Below the pieces are notes generated by a model. The model was not told the DNA's origin and made no database searches. It saw only the letters and a list, made by a program, of their open reading frames with translations. Position numbers and translations under genes: made by a program. This document shows positions 3,953-52,728 of a DNA stretch of 64,000 nucleotides, piece after piece; within the stretch, counting starts at the first letter, position 1, and each line of letters opens with the position of its first letter. The stretch spans positions 2,109-66,108 of the forward strand of contig CAZMXG010000007.1 of NCBI GenBank assembly GCA_964570175.1, in the 5' to 3' direction. Source of the DNA: an uncultured Heliomicrobium sp. Its GTDB lineage: Bacteria; Acidobacteriota; Blastocatellia; RBC074.

Positions 3953-5212
3953 TTGGGAGCAAAGGCCATGACGCCTCTTCAACTTCTCACACGTTTTCTT
4001 GCGCCATTTTTTTCTTTGATCGCTTTGTGCGGCTTTCTGAGCTTTGGCTCAATTCAGGTTTCGGCTCAAACGACACGCATGCTAAGAGTCCAACAGTCCA
4101 TTGCTGCGCGCGGACAAAATCAGAGCGTTGTTGTCGAAATGGAAGCCGTCGGAAATGAAAATGCAGTGGGCTTCAGTTTGAATTTCGATGCCAGTCAGTT
4201 GCGGTATGTTTCGGCTTCGACTTTTGGCGGTTCGACCGGAGCGGCGATAAATATCAACACTTCAATGGTTGGTGTTGGCAAAGTGGGAATTGCGTTGGCA
4301 TTACCGGGTGGCCAGAAACTCGTCCTGGGCAAACAAGCCATCGCCATCATCACCTTTACCGTGTTGGCAACTGAAAATGTCTCAAACACATTTTTGAGTT
4401 TCGGGGATCAGCCGATTGCGCGCGAAGTCGTCGACACTTCCGCAAATGCAGTGGCAGCCAACTTTTCCGGAGCCACACTGACTTTCGCGCAACCAATGGC
4501 CGCCGTTTCAGCCGCCAGCTTCAGCAATGCCAAATTGTCCGGCGATTCGATTGCCACGGCTTTTGGCAATCGCTTGGCGACAAAAACGCAAGCCGCGACT
4601 TCTTTGCCGTTGCCGACTTCACTGGCTGGCTCCAGTTTGATCGTCAAAGACAGCCTGGGCACCGAACGCAATGCCCCACTCTTTTTCGTTTCTCCTACGC
4701 AAGTTAACTTTCTGATTCCAGTAGGCACAGCGACTGGCCCGGCAGCAATCATTGCCACAAATGGCGATGGCATTCTTTCAGTCACCAACACGGAAATCAC
4801 AACTGTCGCGCCATCGCTTTTTTCCGCCAGCGCCACTGGCCAAGGACTTGCCGTCGCCGTTGTGCAGCGAAGAAAGGCGAACGGCGCAATCAGTTACGAA
4901 GCAACTTCCCGTTTTGACTCAACCTTGGGCAAGCTGGTCGCAGTTCCAATTGATCTAAGCCAGCCGACAGATCAGGTCTTTTTGCTGCTTTATGGCACGG
5001 GAATCAAAAACCGCAGCAGTCTATCCAACGTGCTGGTCAAACTGGGCGGCACGAATGCGGAAGTACTTTTTGCCGGTGCCACAACAGAGTTTGCAGGTTT
5101 GGACCAGGTCAACATCCGCCTGCCGCAGACCTTAGCCGGTCGCGGCATGGTCAACATTGTGTTAACCGTTGACGGCCAATCGGCGAACTCGGTGGAGATC
5201 AGCATCAAGTAA
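3953..5212 (+). CDS. Secreted cohesin-like domain protein with Acidobacteria-type C-terminal domain (resembles TIGR03437 Soli_cterm)
   Basis: Signal peptide. N-terminal beta domain (VVVEMEAVGNENAVGFSLNFDASQLRYVSAS) is cohesin-like. C-terminal 220 aa (ATAFGNRLATKTQAATSLPLPTSLAGSSLIVKD...PLFFVSPTQVNFLIP...) is paralogous to the C-terminus of the 29465..30706 protein. Confidence 0.45.
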   Translation: MGAKAMTPLQLLTRFLAPFFSLIALCGFLSFGSIQVSAQTTRMLRVQQSIAARGQNQSVVVEMEAVGNENAVGFSLNFDASQLRYVSASTFGGSTGAAININTSMVGVGKVGIALALPGGQKLVLGKQAIAIITFTVLATENVSNTFLSFGDQPIAREVVDTSANAVAANFSGATLTFAQPMAAVSAASFSNAKLSGDSIATAFGNRLATKTQAATSLPLPTSLAGSSLIVKDSLGTERNAPLFFVSPTQVNFLIPVGTATGPAAIIATNGDGILSVTNTEITTVAPSLFSASATGQGLAVAVVQRRKANGAISYEATSRFDSTLGKLVAVPIDLSQPTDQVFLLLYGTGIKNRSSLSNVLVKLGGTNAEVLFAGATTEFAGLDQVNIRLPQTLAGRGMVNIVLTVDGQSANSVEISIK

Positions 5213-5392
5213 TTGATTATACGGTAGCGGAGCGTCACGTCACTCCGCAGATTAACTTGCCATCCCTGCACCTCGATAGTAGCATCGCGCCGCATCACGA
5301 ACCGGTGACGCCAAAGAAACTGATTTCAGGCTATCGAATCGTCACCAATCACTCATCGCTTTCACTCAACACAACCAAGGAGATCAAACCAG

Positions 5393-6775
5393 ATGGCGGT
5401 TAGCGTAGCTGACTCTTCCCTGCCTATTGCCGAACGCGCGCGGCGACGCATCACTTGGCGACTGATGCCTTTTTTGTTGCTGTTGTATTTTCTGGCTTAC
5501 ATTGACCGCACCAATGTCAGCATTACGGCGCTGAACATGAAAAAGTCTTTGGACGCGGGCGGACTCGGGTTCAACGACAACATCATTGGCTCAGGCGCGG
5601 GCATTTTCTTTATCGGTTACTTTTTGCTGGAAATTCCCGGCACGCTGATCGTTGAAAAGTGGAGCGCGCGAAAGTGGATCGCTCGCATCATGATTTCGTG
5701 GGGAATCATCGCCACCTGCATGGGCTTCATCGGCACCAAGTGGATGAATTTCAGCGACAATGTCACACAGTTTTATGTGCTGCGATTCATTCTGGGTATG
5801 GCTGAAGCCGGTTTCTTTCCTGGCATCGTGGTTTTTCTGACTCACTGGTTTCGCCCCGAAGACCGCGCAAAAGCCAAAGCCAATTTTATGATTGGGATTC
5901 CGATTGCCACCATGATTGGCTTCCCGTTGTCGCGATTGATTATGGATCACGTTCATTGGGCTGGGTATGAGGGTTGGCGCTGGGTTTTTATCCTGGAAGG
6001 GATTCCATCGGTCATTTTTGGAATCGTCACGATTTTCTATTTGACTGACTGGCCGCACGAAGCCAAGTGGTTGCCAGAAGACGAAAAGCAATGGATCACA
6101 AATGAATTGGAGCGCGAGCGAAAGGAAAAATCGGTTTCCGGCGAAGACAACATTTGGCAGGGGTTGAAATCCGGTCTGACGAATCCAAAAACTCTGCTGC
6201 TGGCAGTAATTTATATTTGTATTGTGACAGGGTTTTACGGCCTGACTTTTTTCCTGCCTTCGATTGCCAGAGAGTTGGTTCCCGGCACATCAAAGACAGA
6301 TCAGTTATTGAAGGATTATCTGATTCCCGCTGTCCCTTATTTGTTCGGGTTGGTGGGAATGCTGTTGAACAGCGCGCATTCTGACAAAACCGGCGAACGC
6401 CGTTGGCACACAGCCTGGCCGATTTTGTTTGGCGGGGTCGCGCTCGCTCTGAGCATTCTTTCCGGCAGCAATGTGATTTTTGCGTTCACGTTTTTATGCA
6501 TGGTCGGCGTAGGAGTTCACGCCTATCTGCCGGTTTTCTGGACTTGGCCGTCGCGATTTTTAGCGGCTTCGGCGGCGGCAGCAGCAGTTGGATTGATCAA
6601 TTCTTTCGGCAATCTTGGCGGATATTTCGGCCCGAAGGTTGTCGGCTGGCTGAGCGTTAAGACCGGCAACTATGCTTCTGGCCAATGGTTTTTGGTTGTC
6701 TGTATTTTGGTCGCCGGAGTGTTGGCGACGTTCTTGAAATTGCCGAAAAAACCTGGCGCTCAATCAGCTTCGTAA
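5393..6775 (+). CDS. MFS transporter (anion:cation symporter / hexuronate-type family)
   Basis: About 12 predicted TM helices. MFS motifs (LRFILGMAEAGFFPG; loop GERRWHTAWP). 460 aa. Confidence 0.75.
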   Translation: MAVSVADSSLPIAERARRRITWRLMPFLLLLYFLAYIDRTNVSITALNMKKSLDAGGLGFNDNIIGSGAGIFFIGYFLLEIPGTLIVEKWSARKWIARIMISWGIIATCMGFIGTKWMNFSDNVTQFYVLRFILGMAEAGFFPGIVVFLTHWFRPEDRAKAKANFMIGIPIATMIGFPLSRLIMDHVHWAGYEGWRWVFILEGIPSVIFGIVTIFYLTDWPHEAKWLPEDEKQWITNELERERKEKSVSGEDNIWQGLKSGLTNPKTLLLAVIYICIVTGFYGLTFFLPSIARELVPGTSKTDQLLKDYLIPAVPYLFGLVGMLLNSAHSDKTGERRWHTAWPILFGGVALALSILSGSNVIFAFTFLCMVGVGVHAYLPVFWTWPSRFLAASAAAAAVGLINSFGNLGGYFGPKVVGWLSVKTGNYASGQWFLVVCILVAGVLATFLKLPKKPGAQSAS

Positions 6776-40625: not shown

Positions 40626-42170
40626 TTATCGCCGCTTCCACGCAAACCATTTTTTGATAATCCGGCTGACCGTTGGTGATAACCGAGTGCGGTTATAAAC
40701 ATCGCCGATGCGACGCAGCACTTCGGCCTGCGTGGGGTAAGGATGAATGGTTGAGGAAAGCGCGCTGAGTCTCAGCCCGTGTGTGATGGCCAGCGTTAAT
40801 TCGCTGATCATTTCTCCTGCATGCCGAGCGACAATCGTTCCGCCCAGAATCTTTCCTGACTTTCGGTCGTAATGAACGCGCGCAAAACCTTCGGTTTCCC
40901 CGTCCAAAATCGCCCGGTCGTTGTCGTCAAACTGTTCTGTGATTGTCGCGACATCGAACCCAGCCGTGCAAGCGTCAGCCTCATAAAATCCCACGTGAGC
41001 AACTTCAGGATCAGTGTACGTCACCCAGGGTATCACCAATTGGCTGGCTCTCGCCCTGCCAAAAAACAGCGCATTGCGTAGTACAGTTCTGGCCGTCGCA
41101 TCTGCGGCGTGCGTGAATTTGAACCGCGAACAGACATCGCCAGCAGCGTAAATTTTCGGATTCGTCGTTCGCAAAAAATCGTCAACCGTCACGCCTTCTT
41201 TCGAGTATTCCACACCCGCCGCTTCCAGGTTCAATCTTTCCACATTCGGCACCCGGCCAGCGGCTGACAAAATCAAATCGCAAATGGCTTCGCGCTGAGT
41301 CCCGGCTTGCTCGTACACGACAACTTTCTCTTCACTGCGAACTTCGACGCGAACGATCTTCACCCGGTTTTCGATTCTCATTCCTTCGCTGACCAACTGG
41401 CGATGAATCAACTCGACTGCATCGCGGTCTTCGCGCGGCAGAACGTGCTCAACATCATTCAGCAAGGTCACAGAACAACCAAACCGCTGAAAGGCCTGCG
41501 CCAGTTCGCAGCCAATCGGGCCACCGCCGATGACAACCATCCGGTGCGGCAGTTCCGTAATCGTGAAGATATTTTCGTTCGTGTAATAGCCGGTTTCTTT
41601 CAATCCCGGAATTGGCAATTCGGCGGGCCGTCCGCCTGTCGCAATCACGGCGCGATCAAATTCCAGCCGTTGCCCATCAACTTCGATTTCCGACGGGCTG
41701 ACAAAGCGCGCATCTCCAAGGAAAACTTCGACGTTGTATTTTTCCTTCATACGCACGGCTGCGTCATTGAAGCTGATTTGCGAACGAAGCTTGCGCATCC
41801 GCTCCATTGCGGCAGCAAAATCAATTTGCGGTTCGCCGGAAAGTTCTACGCCAAATTCGCGCGCCAGCCGCAGATCGTAAACCGCACGCGCCGCGCGAAG
41901 GACGGCTTTCGACGGAACGCAGCCCGTCACCAGACAATCTCCGCCCATCAACGCGCGTTCGATGATGGCGGCTTTTGCGCCAAGTCCTCCCGCGCCGCCT
42001 GCGCTGACCAGTCCGGCTGCGCCCGCACCAATCGCCACCAGATTGTATTTTCCGTTCAGAGTTGGATTGATGTGATTCGGCGGATGACAGTTTTCGATCA
42101 TCAACCGGTCGTGAGGATCGCCGCCCAAAGTGACATGGCCGATCGCGTCATCCTCAATCAGAGTTTTCAT
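40626..42170 (-). CDS. Class I pyridine nucleotide-disulfide oxidoreductase (dihydrolipoyl dehydrogenase / mercuric-reductase-like flavoprotein)
   Basis: FAD motif VAIGAGAAGL. Redox-active disulfide GGDCLVTGCVPSK. NAD motif and dimerisation domain present. No N-terminal HMA domain or C-terminal Cys pair, so not a canonical MerA. Confidence 0.75.
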   Translation of the reverse strand: MKTLIEDDAIGHVTLGGDPHDRLMIENCHPPNHINPTLNGKYNLVAIGAGAAGLVSAGGAGGLGAKAAIIERALMGGDCLVTGCVPSKAVLRAARAVYDLRLAREFGVELSGEPQIDFAAAMERMRKLRSQISFNDAAVRMKEKYNVEVFLGDARFVSPSEIEVDGQRLEFDRAVIATGGRPAELPIPGLKETGYYTNENIFTITELPHRMVVIGGGPIGCELAQAFQRFGCSVTLLNDVEHVLPREDRDAVELIHRQLVSEGMRIENRVKIVRVEVRSEEKVVVYEQAGTQREAICDLILSAAGRVPNVERLNLEAAGVEYSKEGVTVDDFLRTTNPKIYAAGDVCSRFKFTHAADATARTVLRNALFFGRARASQLVIPWVTYTDPEVAHVGFYEADACTAGFDVATITEQFDDNDRAILDGETEGFARVHYDRKSGKILGGTIVARHAGEMISELTLAITHGLRLSALSSTIHPYPTQAEVLRRIGDVYNRTRLSPTVSRIIKKWFAWKRR

Positions 42171-42194
42171 CGTGTTGAATCCTCGTAAATTCTG

Positions 42195-42911
42195 TCAAAG
42201 GGTTTTATGTTCCGCTAAGACTTTGACGCTTTCCTGCTCGGCCTGCGCCAGGGCTTTTCTGGCAATTAGCGTCACCAGGATGACAACAGCAATAGTCGCC
42301 AGCAGACCGACAATGCGCAGCACAAGTTCCCAAATTCCCACACCGCCTGAGCTTGCGCTCAAAGCATCACGCGCCGTCGCGCCGATGTACACATACAGAA
42401 ACGTGCCCGGCAACATGCCGATCAAATTCGCCAGCACGTAAGAACCGGTCCGCACCGTCGTCAATCCAAGCAGGTAATTCAGCAGCGTAAACGGGAACAC
42501 CGGGCTGAGCCGGACCAGCAGGACCATTTTGAACCCTTCGCGGCCAATGGCGCGATCAAGCGCGGAAAACTTTGGATTGCCCGCTGCCCACAATGCGACA
42601 CGTTCACGCAGAAAAGTTCGTGTCAGCCAGAAGGCACCCAGCGCGCCCAGATTCGCGCCAATCACGACAACCGCCAGCGCTTTCCAAAAGCTGAAAATGC
42701 CTGCGGCTCCGATTGTCAGCACGCTGCCAGGGATCAACAGCAAAGTCGTCGCGACATACAGCAACACATAGCAAACCGGAGCAAACACGCCGAACTCTTT
42801 GATCGAATTTTGCAGTTCGGTCAGCCAAATGCCGACAGGCAAAAAGCGCAGCAGGATTCCGAGTGCGACAACCAACAATACTACCAGCAGCCACAGCTTC
42901 TTATTTTTCAT
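42195..42911 (-). CDS. DedA / SNARE-associated (TVP38/TMEM64) family membrane protein
   Basis: 238 aa with 5-6 TM helices. Tightly linked, with a 24-bp gap, downstream of the flavoprotein. Confidence 0.75.
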   Translation of the reverse strand: MKNKKLWLLVVLLVVALGILLRFLPVGIWLTELQNSIKEFGVFAPVCYVLLYVATTLLLIPGSVLTIGAAGIFSFWKALAVVVIGANLGALGAFWLTRTFLRERVALWAAGNPKFSALDRAIGREGFKMVLLVRLSPVFPFTLLNYLLGLTTVRTGSYVLANLIGMLPGTFLYVYIGATARDALSASSGGVGIWELVLRIVGLLATIAVVILVTLIARKALAQAEQESVKVLAEHKTL

Positions 42912-42915
42912 GGCT

Positions 42916-43809
42916 TCACCTTTCAGCCAGATTTACCAATGTCGCGCCAAGAATACGTTTCTGCCTTCGTTCCTGAACAAATGCCACTGCTTTCAAATTT
43001 CCGCGTTTCCAATCTTTGCCGAGCATGACTGTCGTTTCTGTCTCGAACGGTTTGGTCGAACTGTGGACGCTTCCCAGCGAACGCAACTCACGAACAACTG
43101 CCGTGTGGTTTAACTTCCGCCCGGTATTTTCTCCACGCACAACCTGGGAGGAAAGATTGGTTTCGGTGATGGCCACCAAGACCTCTGCAATGTCGCCAGT
43201 ACTCAGCTTCGGTAATTTTGCTACGCTGACTTTCAATTTGACGGTCGAAGGAGTTTCCGCTTGCGCAGAATCAATCGCCACTTCGGCTTTGGGAATTTTT
43301 GCCAGACGTGCAATTGCCGTCCGGGCTTTTTCGGAATTGCTGCCAATAAATTCCGCCTGCCCATCCACGACCATTTGCGGCGTGTAAACGCCGTCGTTGT
43401 TGAACACGCTGGCATAGGCACCTTGCCGCGCGCTGAATGCTTCCGACGAAAACGGATCGGACCAGCCTATGTAATTCCAGTAATCAACATGCTCGCTCAG
43501 CGCGATGATTTCCACACCGGCAATCGGTTGTGTATTTTCCAATTCCGCCAGAACCTTATCGGCGGGCGGGCAGCTTGAACAACCTTCCGAAGTGAACAGC
43601 TCAACAATGACTGGCAAGCGTTTGCCTTCAACAGAAGGCACCTCAACTTCCAAAATCTCCGCTTCCGCGTTTGCGACGGAAGACGCTGATGACCAGTGAA
43701 TTGAACTCCGAAACAATTTCGCTCCAGCCAGCAAGGCAATCAGCAGAAACAACCCCGCAGCAATCGCAATTTTCATGTACGGACTCCCTGTTGATGTAGG
43801 TTGAAACAT
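42916..43809 (-). CDS. DUF1223-like secreted thioredoxin-fold protein
   Basis: Signal peptide. FTSEGCSSCPPAD motif characteristic of DUF1223. Confidence 0.55.
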   Translation of the reverse strand: MFQPTSTGSPYMKIAIAAGLFLLIALLAGAKLFRSSIHWSSASSVANAEAEILEVEVPSVEGKRLPVIVELFTSEGCSSCPPADKVLAELENTQPIAGVEIIALSEHVDYWNYIGWSDPFSSEAFSARQGAYASVFNNDGVYTPQMVVDGQAEFIGSNSEKARTAIARLAKIPKAEVAIDSAQAETPSTVKLKVSVAKLPKLSTGDIAEVLVAITETNLSSQVVRGENTGRKLNHTAVVRELRSLGSVHSSTKPFETETTVMLGKDWKRGNLKAVAFVQERRQKRILGATLVNLAER

Positions 43810-43896: not shown

Positions 43897-46070
43897 CTAT
43901 AAATATTCCCGATCTTCATAACACCAGCCCCATTCTTCACCGGGTACCAAAGATTTGATCAGCGGATGAGCCATCCGCTGATGGTGTGCAGTGGCGTGTT
44001 TATTTTTTGATGAATCGCAACAGCCGACGTGACCGCAGGTCAGGCACAATCGCAAATGCACCCAGGTGTCGCCTGAAATCAGGCATTCTTCACAGCCCCG
44101 CGCGCCGGGCACTACCGGGCGGATTTGGTCAAGGTGGGAACAAACGCTTTCTGAAACGGTTGGGGTGAACCTAACAGTCGTTTCGGTATCCACCGTAAAG
44201 CTGACGTTCTGTGGTTGCGGCAGGGAATTCCCTTCGTCGGACTTTTCTTTTCTCACCGGCATGGAGCATTGCGCCATCTTGTCCAAATGAACCTGGCAAA
44301 CGACGGGCGGTGTTTCGCCTTCTGCCGGTTGATGCAGCAAAGCGGCATATCCGCCGCTGCGAATCACTTTTTCGTTGGCTTCGATTTGTTCTGTCGGGAT
44401 TTCGTAATGCTCCATGACTTCCGTGAAAATGCGGGTGATGCTTTCCATCTCTTCGGCAATCGCACTATCCACACCGGCTTCAATCAGCGGACGCGCATCG
44501 CTGATGTAGCGCGTTCGAACGACGATCCGCATTTCCGGATTTAGCGTTTTAGCGACAGCCACAACACGATGCGTCATCGCCGGGTCGTCATCGGCAATCA
44601 CCATCATCCGTGCTCGCTCAACTCCGGCGTGTTCCAGAATGTTCCGTTTGCTATAATCGCCGCGCAACACGTTCAAGCCCGCCGCTTCGGCTTCGTTCGC
44701 GCCCCCTGGACTAAGCGTCGTGATAATGTAAGGAATGCCCGACCCGCTCAAGACGTGAACCAATCTGCGCGCCGCTTGCCCGTACCCTGCCACAATCACG
44801 TGATCATCTAAGTCCAGGAGTGGTTCTGGCAGCACGGTAGCTTCCATTCCGGCGATGATTCTGGCTGTGGTTTTCTTTTGAATCTTTCCCGCCAGCCGCG
44901 AACCGATCTGCATCAGAAACGGCGTCACAACCATCAGCACCACCGTTCCCGCGATAAACGCCTGCGAACCGGCAGCGTCCATCCCCGCAGGCGTCAACCC
45001 CACTTCACGCCCGGCACGTTCCAGCACAAAGGAAAATTCGCCAATTTGCGCCAGCATCAGCGCTGAAGCCGCCGTCACCGGCAATTTGTAGCCAAGCGCT
45101 CGCACGCTCAAACCTGTTGTTATGATCTTGATCAACAACGTCGCCGCAATGACTGCCAACGCCAATGGCAGATTCATTACCAGAAAGCGCAAATCCAACA
45201 GAATGCCGACCGAAACGAAAAAGATCGCGCTGAACAAAATCTGCAACGGCATGATTTCGCCCAAGGCGTGATGGCTGAACCGGCTTTCGCTGACCAGCAA
45301 CCCGGCAAGAAATGCGCCCAGCGATAGGCTGACTCCGGCCAAACTGGTCAAGTAAGCCGTGCCGAAACAAATGGCGATGACCGTCAACAGAAACAATTCC
45401 GGTGAACAGGTTTCGGCGACTTTTTCCAAAATCTTCGGCATCAGTTTGCGCGCAAAAAACAGCACCAGAAAAATGATGGCCAGCGCTTTGCCTAATGCCC
45501 AGACGATTCCAAGCGCCGAACCTCCTGTACCGCTGAGCATCGGAACCAGCAAGACCATGACGATGATCGCCAGGTCTTGGAAAATCAGCAGCCCCAGTCC
45601 AACCTGTCCCTGTTCGCTATTTGTTTCGCCCCGGTCGCCCAGCACTTTCAGGACGATGGCCGTGGAACTGAGTGCCACCAGAAAGCCTGTGAACAGCCCT
45701 GCGCGCCAATTGACCCCAAACAGTGTCAACAGCCCCATTGTCGCCAGCGAAGCCAGCACCACCTGAAGCCCGCCGCCGACAAAGATCAGACGCTTGATGC
45801 TGGCCAGTTTTTCCAGGCTGAATTCAATACCGATGGTGAACAGCAGCAAAATGACGCCGATTTCGGCGGCGTTATCTACCAGTTCACGATTACTGACCAA
45901 CCCCAACGCGTGGGGCCCGATCAACACACCAGCCAATAGAAAGCCGACAATCGGCACCAGCCGCAACCGAAAACTGATGTACGCGATGACTGCACCCGCA
46001 ACCATCAGGGCAACGGCATCTGTCAGGTAAGCCGGAACCGTTCCGGCTGCAAAGATTGTCGGCAAGCTCA
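43897..46070 (-). CDS. CPA2-family cation:proton antiporter (Kef-type) fused to TrkA-N/TrkA-C and a C-terminal UBP-type zinc finger
   Basis: 12-TM Na+/H+-exchanger domain. Rossmann TrkA-N (HVIVAGYGQAARRLVHVL). C-terminal zf-UBP-like CxxC...CxxCGHVGCC...H...H segment (GCEECLISGDTWVHLRLCLTCGHVGCCDSSKNKHATAHHQRMAHP). Start set at the MSLPTI ATG at 46070. Confidence 0.7.
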
Positions 46071-46324
46071 TCGTCAAAAATTTTTCCTTTGTTGAATGCG
46101 TTTGTCGTGACCGCATTCGATCATGCCTTAGCTTTCCCACGCTCGGCAACGAAGAACTCTGCCACTTCTATTGAAACACCGGCACCAACTTACGCCACAG
46201 TCCGCGCATAATCTGTACGGCAACAGACTCACCCTTTCTTGGTTTCTGATCACTGCGGACTTAAACTGCCAACGCCTCTTTGGTTCGTCAAAACCTTTCT
46301 ATTAACCATTCAGAGGGTATTTCG

Positions 46325-46819
46325 ATGTTCTATTTTTTGTGCATCCTGATGCTGTTGATGCAACAGCCTGCAAACGATGCTGCCAACTTTCAATCTGATA
46401 AAAATCCTGCTGATCTGATCGTGCTTTCCCATAGCTGGAAAATGATTCGGGAAGAAAGCCGTCCGTCAACCGCTTGGGATGAATTTGGAAATGCCCAACA
46501 CCCCGCTGCGCTATCGCCGGATTCTTATCGTTACAAATACGACGTAAAAGTCCGGAACATCGGCGCAAAAGCGATCAAGGCAGTTCAATGGCGGTATGTC
46601 TTCACTACCCGAACCGGCCAATCGTCGTTTGAAGTCTTTAGTAAAGAGAGAGTCTTACCCGGACAAAGTAAAAAACTCGGGCTTGGTCAGGTGAATCCAC
46701 CTGGGCCGCCGCGTTCCGTCAATCAAGTTGGAAAGCCTGTTCCCATAAAGGACCTCATGGAACACGTTGTGATTTTATGCATCGAATATACCGACGGGTC
46801 GGTTTGGAAAAGATTATAA
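46325..46819 (+). CDS. Small secreted hypothetical protein
   Basis: MFYFLCILMLLMQQPA signal. 164 aa. No recognised domain. Confidence 0.3.
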   Translation: MFYFLCILMLLMQQPANDAANFQSDKNPADLIVLSHSWKMIREESRPSTAWDEFGNAQHPAALSPDSYRYKYDVKVRNIGAKAIKAVQWRYVFTTRTGQSSFEVFSKERVLPGQSKKLGLGQVNPPGPPRSVNQVGKPVPIKDLMEHVVILCIEYTDGSVWKRL

Positions 46820-46822
46820 AGT

Positions 46823-47392
46823 TTAGCTGATCCGTCCGGCTCCTAAGACAATCGCGCTGTAAGCAACCGCGACATCTGCCCCTCGGTTCGCATACGAATG
46901 TTTTTGATCGCCGCGAAACACCACAACATCGCCTGGCGACAATGAATACTTTTCGCCGGACACGACCAGTTCCACGTGGCCGGATTCGCAAGCCAGATAT
47001 TCCCGTGTTCCCATTCGATGCGGAACGCCAGTCATTTGCGCGCCCGGCGGCAATTCCATGCGGTCAAGTTCCATCCCTTGCAAATAATCCGGCAGCAGTT
47101 TGCGGATCAGCACGCCTCCGCGCCGTTGTTTGGGGATGGTGTCGGCCGGATGGAGTTTCGCCTGCGCTTTCGGCGGACTGATCAATTCTTCGACAGGAAC
47201 CTGGAGTGCAGCGGCGACTTTGGCCAGCACGGACACCGTTGGGTTCGCCGTGCCTGATTCCAGATTCGACCACGTGGGCCGCGGCACTCCCGACAACCGA
47301 GAAAGCTGTTCCTGTGACAGATTCCGGCTTTGCCGCAACTGTTTGATGTTTTGCGCAATGTAACCCGCCAGCTTGTCTTCCATACCAGCCAA
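46823..47392 (-). CDS. XRE-family HTH transcriptional regulator with C-terminal cupin domain
   Basis: HTH LSQEQLSRLSGVPRPTWSNLESG. C-terminal cupin beta-barrel (GHVELVVSGEKYSLSPGDVVVF). Confidence 0.7.
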   Translation of the reverse strand: MAGMEDKLAGYIAQNIKQLRQSRNLSQEQLSRLSGVPRPTWSNLESGTANPTVSVLAKVAAALQVPVEELISPPKAQAKLHPADTIPKQRRGGVLIRKLLPDYLQGMELDRMELPPGAQMTGVPHRMGTREYLACESGHVELVVSGEKYSLSPGDVVVFRGDQKHSYANRGADVAVAYSAIVLGAGRIS

Positions 47393-47478
47393 TTAGCATT
47401 CCGATAATATATTGTCAATTTCGTCGGCATATCAGCAAAGCGCCTTTATGATCCCGCGCAGAAAAGGAGGAATTTGCA

Positions 47479-48240
47479 ATGTCAGAGTTGAATGGAAAAT
47501 CAGTGTTGATTACCGGCGGAAGCCGAGGGCTGGGAAAATCGCTGGCGCTGAAGCTGGCGGCGAAAGGCGCAAAAGTGGCCGTCGTTGCTCGGCAAAAAGT
47601 GGAACTTGACGAAGTTGTGGGAGAGATCAAATGGAACGGCGGCACGGCATTCGGCATTGTGGCCGACGTCGGAGACAAGGAAAGCATTTATCCGATTGTC
47701 GGTCAGGCGGCGGCGCTGGCCGGGCCGGTGGACATTCTGATCAACAACGCCAGCACGCTGGGGCCTGTGCCGCTGCGGCTGATTCCCGATACGGATTGCG
47801 AAGATTTTGAACGTGCGCTCGGGGTCAACACGATCGGCCCGTTTCGGCTGATGAAGGCGGTCGCAGGGCCGATGATCCTGCGGCAAGCTGGTCTGGTCAT
47901 CAACATTTCTTCGGACGCGGCGGTCGAAGCCTATCCGGCATGGGGCGTGTACGGCGCTTCCAAAGCCGCGCTGGACCATCTGACGCGGATTGCGGCGGCA
48001 GAGCTTGGTAGCGCGGGCGTTCGTTTCTTGAGCGTTGATCCGGGAGAGATGGATACGCGCATGCATGCCGACGCCATGCCGGAAACTGATCCCGCAACTT
48101 TGCAATCCCCCGAAGCTGTCGCAGATCAAATCGTATTGATGATTGAACATGCAGATGAAATTGAAAACGGATCACGGATGGTTGCCACCAACTGGTGGGA
48201 AAGGAGGCGTTATGAAAGCAGCACAGGCTCCCAGAACTGA
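47479..48240 (+). CDS. SDR-family short-chain dehydrogenase/reductase
   Basis: ITGGSRGLGKSLALKLAAKGAKV (TGxxxGxG). NNAS. YGASKAAL catalytic YxxxK. Confidence 0.8.
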   Translation: MSELNGKSVLITGGSRGLGKSLALKLAAKGAKVAVVARQKVELDEVVGEIKWNGGTAFGIVADVGDKESIYPIVGQAAALAGPVDILINNASTLGPVPLRLIPDTDCEDFERALGVNTIGPFRLMKAVAGPMILRQAGLVINISSDAAVEAYPAWGVYGASKAALDHLTRIAAAELGSAGVRFLSVDPGEMDTRMHADAMPETDPATLQSPEAVADQIVLMIEHADEIENGSRMVATNWWERRRYESSTGSQN

Positions 48241-49210
48241 AAAGAAGAACGTAAAACTGCTGGTTGTTGAAGCAGGCGAAATACAGGATGGATTGATGAA
48301 ATGCCTGCCCGATCATTTGCGCGCAGGCGATTTGCTGGTGGTCAACGACGCAGCAACCTTGCCCGCTTCGCTGCACGGACGGAATGAAAACGACCAACCA
48401 GTGGAAATTCGTCTGGCGTCGCAATTGAATGACCGAAGCTGGCAGGCGGTGGTTTTTGGCGAAGGAGATTGGCGCACGCCCACAGAACACAGGCCTACTC
48501 CGCCGCGCGTCAAGCCAGGCGAAGAGATTGCCTTTGCCGGTGATTTCAGCGCCATCGTCCTGAAGGAAAACAAACTGTCCGGCAGGTTGCTCGATCTGGA
48601 ATTCAATCGTTCTGGCGAAGATCTGTGGCAAGGCATATATCGGTACGGTAAACCGGTTCAGTACTCTTACATGACAGACGAACTGAATTTATGGTCGGTG
48701 CAAAACGTTTACGGCAGCCGGCCTTGGGCTGTGGAAATGCCCAGCGCTGGCCATGCGCTGGACTGGCAGTTGCTGCTGAAGCTGAAAGAAAAAGGGATTC
48801 AAATCGCTACGCTGACGCACGGCGCGGGCTTATCCGCCACAGGCGATGAGCAGATTGATCAGGCCTTACCACTGGCCGAACGGTTCGAGATTCCGGCGGC
48901 GACGATGGCAACTGTTCTGAGAACCAAAGCTAGCGGCGGACGAGTTGTCGCGGTGGGAACTTCTGTGGTCCGTGCCTTGGAAAGCGCGTCGCTTGGTTTG
49001 AGTGGTGTTACGACCTTGAAAATTGGCCCGGAGCATCAACTTCAGTTTGTGGACGGATTGCTGACCGGCACGCACGATGTGACGGAAAGCCATTACCAAT
49101 TGCTGCAAGCGTTTTTGCCGGAAAGTTTGCTCACCCGCATCAGCCAGCATTTGGAACAGCACCATTACCTGACGCATGAATTCGGTGATGCGTGTTTGAT
49201 TCTTGGCTGA
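48212..49210 (+). CDS. QueA-like protein (S-adenosylmethionine:tRNA ribosyltransferase-isomerase family, divergent)
   Basis: GDLLVVNDAATLPASLHG (compare QueA GDLLVFNNTRVIPARL). LTHGAGLS (QueA TLHVGAGTF). VAVGTSVVRALES (QueA VAVGTTSVRSLE). The conserved YQTVYA block is not seen. Confidence 0.55.
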   Translation: MKAAQAPRTEKKNVKLLVVEAGEIQDGLMKCLPDHLRAGDLLVVNDAATLPASLHGRNENDQPVEIRLASQLNDRSWQAVVFGEGDWRTPTEHRPTPPRVKPGEEIAFAGDFSAIVLKENKLSGRLLDLEFNRSGEDLWQGIYRYGKPVQYSYMTDELNLWSVQNVYGSRPWAVEMPSAGHALDWQLLLKLKEKGIQIATLTHGAGLSATGDEQIDQALPLAERFEIPAATMATVLRTKASGGRVVAVGTSVVRALESASLGLSGVTTLKIGPEHQLQFVDGLLTGTHDVTESHYQLLQAFLPESLLTRISQHLEQHHYLTHEFGDACLILG

Positions 49211-49319
49211 CACAGAAAAACTTCACTCGGGAATTCGCACTTTTCCCTGCTGAGAAGCGCGAATCTTGCCATTCGCCTTGCACTCGCGTTACAACTCGAA
49301 TCCGAAGGGTACGCGAACA

Positions 49320-50501
49320 ATGGGCACAAGCTGGAATAATCTTTTTCTCCGCACCCGCAACGGCTATTGGTTTGCTGTTGCGGGCATTGCGTTGGTCACA
49401 GCAGCACTTGCTCCTTTCCACAACCGCTTCAGTTCAACAACTGTGGCGTTGGCGTTGTTGATTGTTGTTTTGTTTGCCGCGACCGGATGGGGAAGCCGAC
49501 CGGCTGCACTGGCGGCGATTTTGGGCGCGGCGTGCTTTAATTTCTTTTTCCTGCCACCGGTTCACACCTTCACCATTGCCGCCCCGCAAAACTGGACAGC
49601 GCTGGCAGCATTCCTGATTACAGCCGTCACTGCCGGACAGCTTTCGGCCCGTGCCAAACGCCGCGCTGAAGAAGCAGAAGCGGGCAAAGTGGAAATTGAA
49701 CGGCTTTACCGCGAATATCAGATCGCCGAAGAGCAAGCCAAACAAGCCGAAATTTTTCGTCAAAGCGAGCAGCTAAAATCTGCGCTGCTGGATGCTGTGA
49801 CACATGATCTGCGCACGCCGCTGACTTCTATCAAAGCATCCGTGACAACCTTGATCGCCGAAGAAAGTAGCGACGATCCCGTCAAGCTGGATCACGAAAG
49901 CCGTTTTGAGCTGCTGGAAATCATCAACGAAGAAGCCGACCGGTTAAATCGCTTTGTTGAACACATGGTGGATTTGGCAAAGCTGGAAGCAGGGGAATTG
50001 CAACTTCGCCGGCGATGGGGTTCGGTGGAAGAAATCATTGCCGCAGCCAGGGAACGCGCCAGCGCGTTAACCGCCAAACATCACGTTGAAGTTTTTGTTG
50101 AAACAGAACTGCCGTCAGTTCGTGTGGATGCGACGCTGCTGGCCGAAGTGTTGTATTCGCTGATTGACAACGCCGCAAAGTATTCTCCCATTGGTTCGAC
50201 GATTAAAATTGCCGCCAATCAAGCTGAAGGCGAGATGATTACCATTTCGGTTGAAGATCAAGGTTCTGGCGTTCCGGCCGAACTACGCCAACGGATCTTC
50301 GATAAATTCTTTCGTGTGACCAATGACAGCGCGCAACATCCAAGCGGTTTGGGAATGGGGTTGGCTATCGCTCGTGGAATTGTTGAAGCGCACGGCGGAT
50401 ATATCTGGATCGAAAGCGGCGCCAACGATCGCGGCACGCGGGTGAAACTGAGAATCCCAATTGGCGACGAAGACGCTGAAGGAGCCAACAGGCATGAGTG
50501 A
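49320..50501 (+). CDS. Sensor histidine kinase, KdpD C-terminal type (4-TM DUF4118 + HisKA + HATPase_c; no KdpD N-terminal/Usp domains)
   Basis: DUF4118-like TM block (NGYWFAVAGIALV...FNFFFLPPVHTF). H-box AVTHDLRTPLTSI. N/G boxes. ATG at 49320. Confidence 0.75.
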   Translation: MGTSWNNLFLRTRNGYWFAVAGIALVTAALAPFHNRFSSTTVALALLIVVLFAATGWGSRPAALAAILGAACFNFFFLPPVHTFTIAAPQNWTALAAFLITAVTAGQLSARAKRRAEEAEAGKVEIERLYREYQIAEEQAKQAEIFRQSEQLKSALLDAVTHDLRTPLTSIKASVTTLIAEESSDDPVKLDHESRFELLEIINEEADRLNRFVEHMVDLAKLEAGELQLRRRWGSVEEIIAAARERASALTAKHHVEVFVETELPSVRVDATLLAEVLYSLIDNAAKYSPIGSTIKIAANQAEGEMITISVEDQGSGVPAELRQRIFDKFFRVTNDSAQHPSGLGMGLAIARGIVEAHGGYIWIESGANDRGTRVKLRIPIGDEDAEGANRHE

Positions 50502-51189
50502 CGCGCAACGCATTCTGGTTGTAGACGACGAAACGCAGATTGTCCGCGTGTTGCGCCGAGGTTTGTCTGCGCGCGGTTATGAAGTCCAAACCGCCAGCAA
50601 CGGGGAAGAAGCGTTGGATGTTTTTTCGCAATGGCCAGCCGATCTGGTCATCACCGATCTTTCCATGCCGCAAATGGCCGGGCTGGAGCTTTGCCGCCGT
50701 CTGCGCAAATTGTCCCCTGTGCCAATCATTGTGCTTTCGGTTAAGGGAGAAGAACGAACCAAGGTTGAAGCGCTGGATTCCGGCGCTGACGATTACATCA
50801 CCAAGCCGTTTGGCATGGACGAACTGCTGGCGCGAATTCGCGCAGCGTTGCGGCGAACTACGGCTTCGACTTCACGCGAAATGACCGAGATCGAACTTGG
50901 CGATTTTCACGTTGACCTGGAAGCCAGAAGCGTCACCGTGCGAAACAATGGCGTGCATCTGACGCCCAAAGAATACGAATTGCTGGTTTACCTGATTCGT
51001 CATGCTGGCAAAGTCTTGACTCACCGCATTTTGCTCGGGGCGATTTGGGGCGGCGACTACACCGAACAAACTGAATATCTGCGTGTTTTTATTGGCCAGC
51101 TTCGCAAAAAGATCGAACCGGATCCGGCAAACCCTCGCTATATTTTGACTGAGCCTTGGATCGGCTATCGGTTTAGTCCCGATTCCTAA
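50494..51189 (+). CDS. OmpR/KdpE-family response regulator
   Basis: REC domain (ILVVDDE...DLVITDLSMP). C-terminal trans_reg_C wHTH (LTPKEYELLVYLIRHAGKVLTHRILL). Overlaps the HK stop by 8 bp. Confidence 0.85.
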   Translation: MSDAQRILVVDDETQIVRVLRRGLSARGYEVQTASNGEEALDVFSQWPADLVITDLSMPQMAGLELCRRLRKLSPVPIIVLSVKGEERTKVEALDSGADDYITKPFGMDELLARIRAALRRTTASTSREMTEIELGDFHVDLEARSVTVRNNGVHLTPKEYELLVYLIRHAGKVLTHRILLGAIWGGDYTEQTEYLRVFIGQLRKKIEPDPANPRYILTEPWIGYRFSPDS

Positions 51190-51316
51190 ATCTTGGAACG
51201 TAGCTTTGATTCCGAGGTGCCTTTTGTCCTCAACATTTTTTCCGCAAATTTTGGAAGTTTTTGAGCGCGCCGAGCGAATACCTCATGTCAGCCGACCGGC
51301 GGACGCTACAAAAACG

Positions 51317-51940
51317 ATGAGCAACGGAACGACATTCAGCGACCATGACTTGTTGCGGCGGATGATGGCTGGCGACGAAGAAGCGTTTACCGCGCTTTAT
51401 CGGCGGCATCAGGCCAACATTTATCGTTTCGCGTTGCTGATGAGCGGTTCGGCGACAGTTGCCGACGATGTGACGCAGGAAGTCTTTCTGGCTTTGATGG
51501 GCGGCGGCCAGCGTTACGATTCGGATCGTGGCCCGCTGACGGCCTTTCTGTATGGAATTGCCCGCAACCAGGTGTTGCGATCCCGTCGCCGTGAACGCGC
51601 TTGTGATCCTTTGGAAGAAGAAACAGAAGAGGCCGAGGCCGGTATCGTTCGAAGTTTGATTTCACAAGACGACCCGCTGGCTGAGATCGTGCGCGGCGAA
51701 ATCATCAGCGCTGTTCGCCAAGCAGTTTTAACGCTGCCCGCGCGTTACCGCGAAACCGTCGTGCTGTGCGACTTTCAGGAATTAAGTTACGCAGAAGCCG
51801 CTCTGGCGCTTAATTGCGCGGTTGGCACCGTGAGTTCGCGTTTGAACCGCGCGCGCGCAATGTTGGCTGAACGCTTGCGAGCGATGAATTCAGTGGACGC
51901 CAACGCGTTTGAAACTGCACCTGTGAGGTGTTTGGTATGA
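51317..51940 (+). CDS. ECF-subfamily RNA polymerase sigma-70 factor
   Basis: Region 2 (FTALYRRHQANIYRFALLMSGSATVADDVTQEVFL). Region 4 (YRETVVLCDFQELSYAEAALALNCAVGTVSSRLNRAR). Confidence 0.8.
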   Translation: MSNGTTFSDHDLLRRMMAGDEEAFTALYRRHQANIYRFALLMSGSATVADDVTQEVFLALMGGGQRYDSDRGPLTAFLYGIARNQVLRSRRRERACDPLEEETEEAEAGIVRSLISQDDPLAEIVRGEIISAVRQAVLTLPARYRETVVLCDFQELSYAEAALALNCAVGTVSSRLNRARAMLAERLRAMNSVDANAFETAPVRCLV

Positions 51941-52728
51941 ACTGTCAGGATTTCGAAATCACCATTTTGGGAATGGCGCGATCTCAACTGTTGGATGCCT
52001 CGGCTCGCCGCCAGACGCTTGCTCATATCGCGGAGTGTGCCGCCTGCGCTGACCGGCTTGCCGAACAACAGGCGCTGACGGCTGCCGTGAACGCTACGGC
52101 GAAAAACCTTCGGTATGAAGAAGCATCGGCGCATGTTGAACAATCTTTGCGGGCAGCTTTCCGGAAACAGTCAAAAGTTCCTACAGTGTTTCGCAGCACG
52201 CCGATTCGCACACAGCAATCGTCGAAACGGATTTTCGCCACTGTAGCAGCAATTGTTTTACTGATTTTCCTAGCCAGCTTGATTCGGCAATGGAGTACCG
52301 GCGGCTCAAACCAAAAATTGGCGGAAGCGCAACCCACGCCAACTACGCCTTCAAAGAATGATCTAAGTCAGAAATATCCGCCCACCCCGTCAGAGCAGAA
52401 ATTTGTCCGCCACGTTGGCAGTGAGCGACGCCACGTCCGACGACCTTTTCCCAAAGCGACAACCGAGTTGGAAGAAGCCATCACGGGATTTATCGCTTTA
52501 AGTAATGAAAGCCAGCTTGTCCCTTTGGAAAGCGGCCAGGTGCTGCGCGTTGAGCTTCCGACTTCGACGCTGATTTCCATGGGGCTGCCGATTACTGCGG
52601 AAGACGTTAGCAAACCGATCCTGGCAGATTTGCTGGTTGGCCAAGACGGAATGGCGCGCGCCATCCGCTTTGTTCGACCGATCGAAACCAATGAAACCGG
52701 CTCGTCTCAACAATTCAATAACAAGTGA
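51937..52728 (+). CDS. Anti-sigma factor (zf-HC2-type N-terminus, single TM)
   Basis: MNCQDFE...HIAECAACADRL is a Cys/His zinc motif typical of ECF anti-sigmas. TM helix IFATVAAIVLLIFLASLI. ATGA overlap with the sigma gene. Confidence 0.6.
   Translation: MNCQDFEITILGMARSQLLDASARRQTLAHIAECAACADRLAEQQALTAAVNATAKNLRYEEASAHVEQSLRAAFRKQSKVPTVFRSTPIRTQQSSKRIFATVAAIVLLIFLASLIRQWSTGGSNQKLAEAQPTPTTPSKNDLSQKYPPTPSEQKFVRHVGSERRHVRRPFPKATTELEEAITGFIALSNESQLVPLESGQVLRVELPTSTLISMGLPITAEDVSKPILADLLVGQDGMARAIRFVRPIETNETGSSQQFNNK

Follow-up and report, generated by a model that had tools for sequence, protein, structure and literature searches.

Organization of the locus

The DNA analysed here, a stretch of 64,000 nucleotides of contig CAZMXG010000007.1 (the window), contains a three-gene locus delimited by open reading frame (ORF) listing and domain scans: a regulator with XRE-type helix-turn-helix (HTH) and cupin domains on the minus strand and, on the plus strand, a classical short-chain dehydrogenase/reductase (SDR) gene followed by a gene of the QueA family. 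The reaction of QueA is among the most unusual of those that use S-adenosylmethionine (SAM), since the ribose of SAM serves as a building block, and to our knowledge this chemistry has so far been found only in one tRNA-modifying step. The locus of the window is one member of a large, uncharacterised and mis-annotated family of QueA paralogs that have a fixed SDR partner and a sensor-regulator. The genes and the start signal of the paralog are:

46823..47383, minus strand: XRE-HTH/cupin transcriptional regulator, 186 aa from ATG 47383, with HTH_3 and Cupin_2 domains
47479..48240, plus strand: classical SDR, 253 aa (adh_short, E 3e-49)
48201..48207, plus strand: Shine-Dalgarno AAGGAGG of the QueA-like gene, read from the sequence, within the 3' end of the SDR gene and 4 nt before ATG 48212
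48212..49210, plus strand: QueA-family paralog, 332 aa (PF02547, 184 bits)

The mechanical ORF of the regulator reaches TTG 47392, and ATG 47383, which matches the homologues, is the likelier start. For the QueA-like gene, ATG 48212 was favoured over a GTG one codon earlier, and the resulting 332-aa product is identical to database protein P0001; the initial annotation had described a 333-aa protein aligning with QueA, of which the alignment stands and the length is probably one residue too long. The start of this gene overlaps the stop of the SDR gene (48240) by 29 nt, in agreement with the overlap noted at first sight, which implies translational coupling of the two genes. The SDR gene has its own AAGGAGG 8 nt before its ATG, and the spacer between the regulator and the SDR is about 90 nt. 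The best database matches of the QueA-like protein belong to metagenome-assembled genomes (MAGs) labelled Blastocatellia or Acidobacteriota.

An N-terminal extension of the QueA-like protein from TTG 48143 was attractive for its 'WLPP', which resembles the canonical LP motif, and was rejected: the spacing to the AAxxP motif is wrong, the homologues begin at the ATG, a strong Shine-Dalgarno precedes ATG 48212, and the stretch encodes, in a different frame, the C-terminus of the SDR. This in-frame upstream stretch (48143-48211, plus strand) encodes ...HGWLPPTGG..., and the alignment of the Geobacillus QueA extends into it. The stretch could be what is left of the canonical LP motif at the N-terminus, which the SDR C-terminus now overlaps, or the resemblance could be coincidental.

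A separate clade of the QueA family

The QueA-like protein matches PF02547 over profile positions 13-322 (184 bits, E 5e-54), and its sequence aligns with those of PDB entries 1VKY, 1YY3 and 1WDI (E 1e-24 to 1e-26). Its AlphaFold (AF2) model, with a pLDDT of 96.7, matches only these same three entries in the PDB, all of them QueA (E 1e-21 to 1e-24). The protein thus belongs unambiguously to the QueA family and shares its fold, and the blocks by which it had been recognised in the initial annotation (GDLLVVND, HGAGLS, VAVGTSVVRALES and the C-terminal FGDACLIL) are all present. Against the two NCBIfam equivalog models for QueA it reaches 145.5 bits (NF001140, cut-off 324) and 121.2 bits (TIGR00113, cut-off 267.45). 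Relatives are named generically by PGAP as 'S-adenosylmethionine:tRNA ribosyltransferase-isomerase', without 'QueA'; applied to the paralogs, this database label would lead to overestimates of the queuosine capacity predicted for soil genomes and metagenomes.

A HMMER scan of 1.84 billion representatives, with clusters at 50% identity, recovered 5682 QueA-family clusters, 387 of them at E<=1e-30. The best 150 of these 5682 clusters have scores of 213-429 bits and identities of 38-60% (71% in a few fragments). Proteins annotated as canonical QueA from six phyla, among them Bacillota, Pseudomonadota, Spirochaetota, Bacteroidota and Fusobacteriota, reach only 78-145 bits, and their identity to the window protein is 24-32%. 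The paralog clade comprises at least 150, perhaps about 390, clusters at 50% identity. Canonical QueAs are closer to one another than this: that of Sinorhizobium is 37-46% identical to canonical QueAs of other phyla, and in a joint alignment the mean identity was 41% for canonical QueAs compared with each other, 43% for members of the subfamily and 26% across the two groups. The subfamily formed a separate, well-populated clade, not grouped with the canonical QueAs, in 97 of 100 neighbour-joining bootstrap replicates, so that the description of the gene as a divergent paralog withstood the phylogenetic test.

Could the gene nevertheless be the housekeeping QueA of its organism, that is, a fast-evolving tRNA preQ1(34) ribosyltransferase-isomerase that lies next to an SDR by chance? 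Its clear family membership, its QueA fold and the lack of any other QueA homologue within the 64-kb window would fit such a reading, as would the retention of 15 residues that are invariant family-wide (see below). The scores at less than half of both curated equivalog cut-offs, the separate clade and the loss of about 20 canonical-invariant positions speak against it, and together with the genetic context of the subfamily, described in the following sections, they make it very unlikely.

Three other QueA-family genes were noted during the searches. The canonical QueA closest to the window protein (32% identity, 145 bits) is encoded by a full-length gene annotated as canonical queA on the small conjugative Geobacillus thermodenitrificans plasmid pGeo12a (58.8 kb; locus L093). 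Two non-standard QueA-family genes lie outside the SDR-linked clade, have no SDR partner and are more canonical-like (PF02547, 242-245 bits). One, on a Sinorhizobium medicae plasmid (L102, 3911-4936), is flanked by a SnoaL-like gene and a radical-SAM/SPASM gene; the other, in Nonomuraea gerenzanensis (L103, about 4870-5867), adjoins the gene of a GAF histidine kinase.

Conservation of the three-gene cassette

The genetic context was compared in 93 loci, comprising seven GTDB genome loci, 80 metagenome loci retrieved with the subfamily profile and six loci from exact protein look-ups. An orthologous SDR gene lies immediately upstream of the QueA-like gene in all 70 loci with at least 760 nt of upstream DNA, and the distance from the SDR stop to the QueA-like start has its mode at -4 nt (an ATGA overlap). 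The divergent XRE-cupin gene was found next to the SDR in 60 of the 61 loci with at least 1.5 kb of upstream DNA, usually at a spacing of 60-110 nt, and the divergent arrangement of the pair and an HTH-cupin gene, proposed from the window alone, is therefore a property of the group. The exceptions are L057 (1-3140), which has no divergent XRE-cupin gene upstream of the SDR, and L044 (2500-5250), where this gene is 2.8 kb away; the intervening ORFs of both loci had no Pfam match. In L002 (3904-5712) the SDR and the QueA-like protein are encoded by a single 602-aa ORF, and protein P0251 (637 aa) has adh_short followed by Queuosine_synth in one chain; these could be natural fusions or one-base assembly errors in overlapping genes.

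The arrangement persists where the QueA-like protein has as little as 46% identity, and the MAGs that contain it carry the names Blastocatellia, Acidobacteriota, Planctomycetota, Myxococcota and Polyangiaceae. Complete assemblies with the paralog include ENA ERZ25039588 (contig_2533, 9.54 Mb) and GCA_049590935.1. Outside the triad the flanks vary between loci: when all ORFs lying within 4 kb of it were clustered, no other family was present in more than six of about 90 loci, so that no further neighbour is conserved. Because the triad is fixed and its neighbours are variable, the cassette is taken as a self-contained unit of a regulator and two coupled enzymes. Neither tgt nor a second QueA homologue was found in the 64-kb window and 794 kb of flanking DNA of related loci. 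A role in anti-phage defence was also considered and dropped: PADLOC returned no match for the SDR or the QueA-like protein, and only generic HTH matches for the regulator.

This context is indeed atypical for a housekeeping queA, as the initial annotation had argued. In three Rhizobiaceae chromosomes the canonical queA lies in a ppi-ppi-queA-tgt array, whereas the paralogs have an almost invariable SDR coupling and a conserved palindrome upstream (see below). A dedicated sensor-regulator, an obligatory SDR partner and occasional fusion would be unexpected for a constitutive tRNA-modification gene.

Residues kept, lost and gained

Eight canonical QueAs from six phyla were compared with 68 subfamily members. 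Fifteen residues are invariant in both groups (window numbering): D40, N45, G146, Q164, P177, A179, G206, E223, G249, T250, R254, E257, H288, G325 and D326. As these family-wide positions are retained, the active-site core is probably intact.

About 20 positions that are invariant in canonical QueAs of the six phyla are lost in the subfamily, so that the protein does not keep all canonical residues as a plain QueA would. Those no longer conserved include (E. coli numbering) F8, L10, R23, D161, G174, H184, F185, T256, T280, I284, P286, N299, F300, P303, Y324 and F334. The canonical motif set FxFxLP..R..SRLL, GLHF(T), T(N)FHLP and YRFFS(F/Y)GD is absent from the QueA-like protein: the subfamily has lost the N-terminal FxFxLP, GLHF (H184/F185) and NFHLP (N299/F300/P303), and of YRFFS(F/Y)GD it keeps only GD. 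FxFxLP is missing because the QueA-like protein begins at the AAxxP that follows it. The basic positions R23, R62, K99, K102, K244 and R333 (E. coli numbering), conserved in canonical QueA, are lost as well. The missing hallmark residues pointed out in the initial annotation are thus real, and their loss is systematic across the 68 members rather than peculiar to the window sequence.

In exchange, the subfamily has its own invariant or near-invariant residues. These are D46, T49, R67, a GxGDWRTPT..R94 loop, R125, P148, Q150, Y151, E175, S178, H203, S208, D216, P220, S293, H294, H322 and E323; the GxGDWRTPT..R94 loop is an insertion in the beta-barrel domain. The strictly invariant ones are R67, this insertion, R125, Q150, Y151, E175, H203, D216, H294, H322 and E323. 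As read from the alignment, this pattern is the signature of an enzyme whose catalytic core is kept and which binds a different partner.

The loss of so many canonical invariant residues, the tight SDR coupling and the fusions would also fit a catalytically inactive QueA-like protein that serves its SDR partner as a regulatory subunit, either a sensor of SAM or another ligand or a scaffold. This is highly improbable. The 15 family-wide polar or glycine positions are strictly kept in a clade whose members are about 43% identical to one another, and more than 10 further polar residues are invariant within the clade. Purifying selection on an active site typically leaves such a pattern. The model is also fully ordered.

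The residue changes bear as well on a stress-controlled nucleic-acid modification, in which the pair would install an SDR-processed hypermodification on tRNA, another RNA or DNA, possibly at a 7-deazaguanine or another amine-bearing base. The known chemistry of the fold acts only on a tRNA base, and the three new invariant arginines (R67, R94 and R125) could bind phosphates. Moreover, 7-deazaguanine pathways have repeatedly been recruited from tRNA to DNA (PMC5699537). However, none of the 93 loci has a linked Tgt or DpdA-like transglycosylase, a preQ0/preQ1 biosynthesis gene or a nuclease, neither enzyme has a PADLOC defence-system match, the conserved basic positions listed above are lost, and SoxR and cupin sensors usually control small-molecule metabolism. 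A nucleic-acid target is accordingly regarded as distinctly unlikely.

A judgement of tRNA binding from bulk charge or isoelectric point (pI) was tried and abandoned, as these values are not discriminating.

The SDR partner

The SDR has all the cofactor and catalytic motifs of the classical type, with TGGSRGLG at residue 12, NNAS at 89, S144...Y157GASK and PGEMDT at 188, and no NCBIfam equivalog or subfamily model reaches its cut-off for it. It is probably NADP(H)-dependent, as Arg38 follows strand beta-2. The window SDR shares 54% identity with the SDR paired with the Rhizobium etli QueA-like gene, between Acidobacteriota and Rhizobium.

The regulator and its candidate operator

The regulator contains Pfam domains HTH_3 (E 3e-15) and Cupin_2 (E 8e-12) and is similar to PDB entry 1Y9Q (E 4e-12). 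Its similarity to PuuR is full-length and weak (E 1e-9; 38 bits against an equivalog cut-off of 211), so it is not PuuR itself. The PuuR-like architecture is nonetheless present, with HTH_3 at the N-terminus, Cupin_2 at the C-terminus, an operon transcribed divergently and a palindrome as candidate operator. The residues H122, E128, C132, E133, H162 and N166 of the cupin domain are invariant, and H122, E128, H162 and N166 may form a partial H/E/H metal site.

Alignment of 64 regulator-SDR intergenic regions revealed a conserved palindrome, TGCCAAT-N2-ATTGGCA. Its strict core, CAAY-N2-RTTG, is present in 37 of the 64 regions (each about 100 nt), against a background of 0.009 per 100 nt over 625 kb of locus DNA. 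In the window, the intergenic region contains:

47402..47417, no strand: candidate operator, palindrome CGATAATATATTGTCA, the window version of TGCCAAT-N2-ATTGGCA, overlapping the predicted minus-strand -10
47422..47437, no strand: possible second half-repeat of the operator, weaker, in the TCGGCATATCAGCAAA region and some two helical turns downstream from the candidate operator
47424..47452, plus strand: promoter-like site of the SDR/QueA-like operon, TCGGCA-17-TATGAT, a weak match in a consensus scan

The possible half-repeat overlaps the predicted plus-strand -35 element, and on visual reading a second TGnCAA..TTGnCA-like site is seen at equal spacing in many related intergenic regions. The promoter consensus scan gave three sites against 1.8 expected and is indicative only. 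The arrangement of the palindrome and the predicted promoters fits an autoregulated repressor that would control both promoters.

In three loci (L015, L020 and L007) the regulator-SDR spacer contains palindromic repeats of about 70-80 nt (e.g. AGTGGGCAGTGGTTAGTGGTTAGTGGGCAGTG ... and its complement), placed between the operator and the SDR ribosome-binding site, which resemble repetitive extragenic palindromic (REP) elements or miniature inverted-repeat transposable elements (MITEs).

SoxR in place of the cupin regulator in Rhizobium

When 72,556 plasmids were searched in translation, members of the subfamily with 40-43% identity turned up on 32 plasmids or chromids of Rhizobium. There too the QueA-like gene follows an SDR gene, which it overlaps by 4 nt (in R. 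etli CFN42 the SDR and QueA-like genes make up the operon RHE_RS29350 and RHE_RS29345), and in all six replicons inspected the gene divergent from the pair is soxR. The SoxR of R. etli p42f carries CIGCGCLSIDRC, in agreement with the CX2CXCX5C cluster motif. The Rhizobium intergenic region contains TTCAAGTTAACTTGAA between a TTGACT -35 element and the -10 region, an arrangement that we take to be a SoxR box (an 18-bp dyad) in an overlong spacer, as in the E. coli soxS promoter. In four of the six replicons the promoter spacer contains the strict SoxR-box pattern, with TTCAAGTTAACTTGAA at its centre. The Rhizobium SDR/QueA-like pair is therefore predicted to be a direct SoxR target. In non-enteric bacteria SoxR directly controls few genes, which encode transporters and enzymes that modify small molecules (PMC4146615).

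The Rhizobium replicons also bear on the housekeeping reading. The paralogs are on plasmids or chromids, while the Rhizobiaceae genomes returned by a search with the Sinorhizobium canonical QueA (best 120 matches, R. etli not among them) all encode a canonical queA, which in each of three inspected loci adjoins tgt. Both genes together were seen in no paralog-bearing strain, and their presumed co-occurrence rests on the presence of canonical queA across the Rhizobiaceae genomes returned.

Proposed function

A distinct clade, an intact core with an altered periphery, the SDR coupling, a sensor-regulator with its palindrome and the replacement of this regulator by SoxR together lead us to infer an inducible small-molecule pathway. 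Here it is proposed that the locus is an inducible, SAM-dependent small-molecule cassette whose QueA-like enzyme has a non-tRNA acceptor, rather than a housekeeping tRNA-modification gene, a reading that is held to be somewhat better than even. The suggestion of the initial annotation, a repurposed SAM ribosyl-transfer enzyme acting on a small molecule, is supported to this extent by the sequence comparisons; the small-molecule substrate itself is suggested by the context and the residue changes.

In the proposed mechanism, the regulator would bind the palindrome and repress both promoters, and would be released from it once the cupin domain detects its signal, which may be a small molecule or a redox or electrophile cue. 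The QueA-like enzyme would then activate SAM in the manner of QueA, by deprotonation at C5' and opening of the ribose ring with release of adenine and methionine, and would transfer or rearrange the ribose-derived C5 unit onto a small non-tRNA acceptor. The SDR, probably NADP(H)-dependent and physically associated with this enzyme, would act on the acceptor or on a carbonyl intermediate by reduction or oxidation. The SoxR link and the invariant cysteine and putative metal site of the cupin sensor suggest a redox-active or electrophilic trigger, and, given the predicted SoxR targeting of the Rhizobium pair, the physiological role would most likely be the modification or neutralisation of redox-active or electrophilic small molecules met in soil. 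The more specific proposal, an undescribed reaction in which the ribosyl group of SAM is transferred to, or carbocyclised onto, a free small molecule instead of tRNA and which is switched on by redox-active or electrophilic compounds, is put forward tentatively, as somewhat short of even.

The same two enzymes could instead be biosynthetic and not detoxifying, combining SAM with water, ammonia or a common metabolite into a cyclopentanoid or acyclic ribose-derived signal or protectant, with a regulator that senses a condition and not a substrate. QueA chemistry naturally yields an epoxy-cyclopentanediol from SAM (PMC9092360), and the SDR could trap an aldehyde or ketone intermediate. Two enzymes with no transporter or other conserved neighbour fit ubiquitous intracellular substrates, and the 1:1 coupling, together with the fusions, points to an unstable intermediate that is channelled. 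Where a divergent repressor has a ligand-binding domain, however, the ligand is more often the substrate of the controlled operon, non-enteric SoxR regulons mostly handle exogenous or endogenous redox-active compounds (PMC4146615), and these taxa are not associated with any known natural product of this type. Such a biosynthetic role is considered unlikely, if deserving of some weight.

Several points weigh against the proposed small-molecule cassette with a non-tRNA acceptor. The SoxR link comes from Rhizobium and not from the organism of the window, and the swap of regulators may mean different physiological roles. The cassette has neither a transporter nor another enzyme linked to it that would hint at the acceptor. 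A canonical queA in the genome of the window organism was not demonstrated, the search having covered the 64-kb window. Overall charge and pI fail to separate the subfamily from canonical QueAs. The PDB has no QueA structure with bound SAM or tRNA, and the lost residues are therefore linked to tRNA or preQ1 binding by inference. The literature search found no experimental work, biochemical or genetic, on any member of this QueA-paralog subfamily, including under the topics of queA or queuosine in Acidobacteria and the SoxR box in Rhizobium; the matches to 'QueA homolog' concerned streptococcal arc-operon neighbours, a correlation with pH preference and a canonical queA that adjoins a pathogenicity island of Pseudomonas.

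A large conserved paralog clade tied to a dehydrogenase and a sensor-regulator implies a second, unexplored use of QueA chemistry. If the more specific proposal of ribosyl transfer to a free small molecule is true, it would be the first use of this chemistry outside tRNA, in a widespread inducible pathway of soil bacteria (Acidobacteriota, Myxococcota, Planctomycetota and Rhizobium) that operates through an XRE-cupin sensor or SoxR. The Rhizobium version is genetically tractable, and its predicted SoxR dependence suggests redox-cycling compounds as inducers.

Neighbouring genes in the window

Downstream of the QueA-like gene, after a 56-nt gap without a predicted terminator, there are four genes on the plus strand (49266-52728). 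The first two encode a DUF4118-HisKA-HATPase kinase, which is like the KdpD C-terminus without the Kdp sensor part, and an OmpR-type response regulator, with a 41-nt overlap; the other two encode an extracytoplasmic function (ECF) sigma factor and an anti-sigma factor. As this block is syntenic only in the 93%-identical locus L001, it is placed outside the cassette.

On the other side, a 179-aa ORF (46280-46819, plus strand) converges on the regulator gene, their stop codons being 3 nt apart; it had no Pfam, NCBIfam or PADLOC match and was not seen beside the triad in other loci. Beyond it, on the minus strand (43897-46149), lies the gene for a 750-aa cation/proton antiporter (Na_H_Exchanger and TrkA_N, KefB-like) with a C-terminal zf-UBP zinc-finger domain, a fusion that is unusual in a bacterial transporter. 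Upstream of the antiporter, also on the minus strand (40626-43809), is a series of redox and membrane genes, whose products are a 514-aa pyridine-nucleotide-disulphide oxidoreductase, a protein with a DedA/VTT domain and a DUF1223 protein.

Comparison with known systems

In the SoxR regulons of Pseudomonas aeruginosa, Streptomyces coelicolor and Stenotrophomonas, the known direct targets are oxidoreductases, monooxygenases and pumps for redox-active small molecules (PMC4146615). The Rhizobium operon resembles them in its divergence from soxR and in the SoxR-box pattern within an overlong spacer. It differs in that the SoxR regulons described so far are not reported to include an enzyme of the QueA family, and the window and most of its relatives have the XRE-cupin regulator, with no soxR at the window locus.

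With the PuuR-type XRE-HTH/cupin repressors (E. coli PuuR and 1Y9Q, an uncharacterised HTH_3/cupin regulator), the window regulator shares the two-domain architecture and, as predicted from its sequence, the position of a divergent, probably autoregulated repressor beside the enzymes that it controls. It is distinguished by its own candidate operator, TGCCAAT-N2-ATTGGCA, and by the invariant cysteine of its cupin domain. The SDR has the Rossmann TGxxxGxG, NNAS, Ser-Tyr-Lys and PGxxxT features of classical SDR ketoreductases (the closest solved structures being 4Z0T, an uncharacterised SDR, SiaM 3WOH and FabG-type enzymes), but it belongs to an orthologous group that travels only with the QueA paralog.

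With QueA itself (EC 2.4.99.17; 1VKY, 1YY3 and 1WDI; TIGR00113/NF001140) the paralog shares PF02547, the two-domain fold, an equal length and the 15 common invariant residues, E223, R254, E257, H288 and D326 among them; given this fold and these residues, SAM is probably activated alike. The paralog differs from QueA in its identity of about 26% and its scores below half of both equivalog cut-offs, and in the absence of the canonical motifs, in place of which it has the GxGDWRTPT..R insertion and its own set of invariant Arg, His, Glu and Tyr residues. In the loci read it is never beside tgt, and its partners are the SDR and the sensor-regulator.

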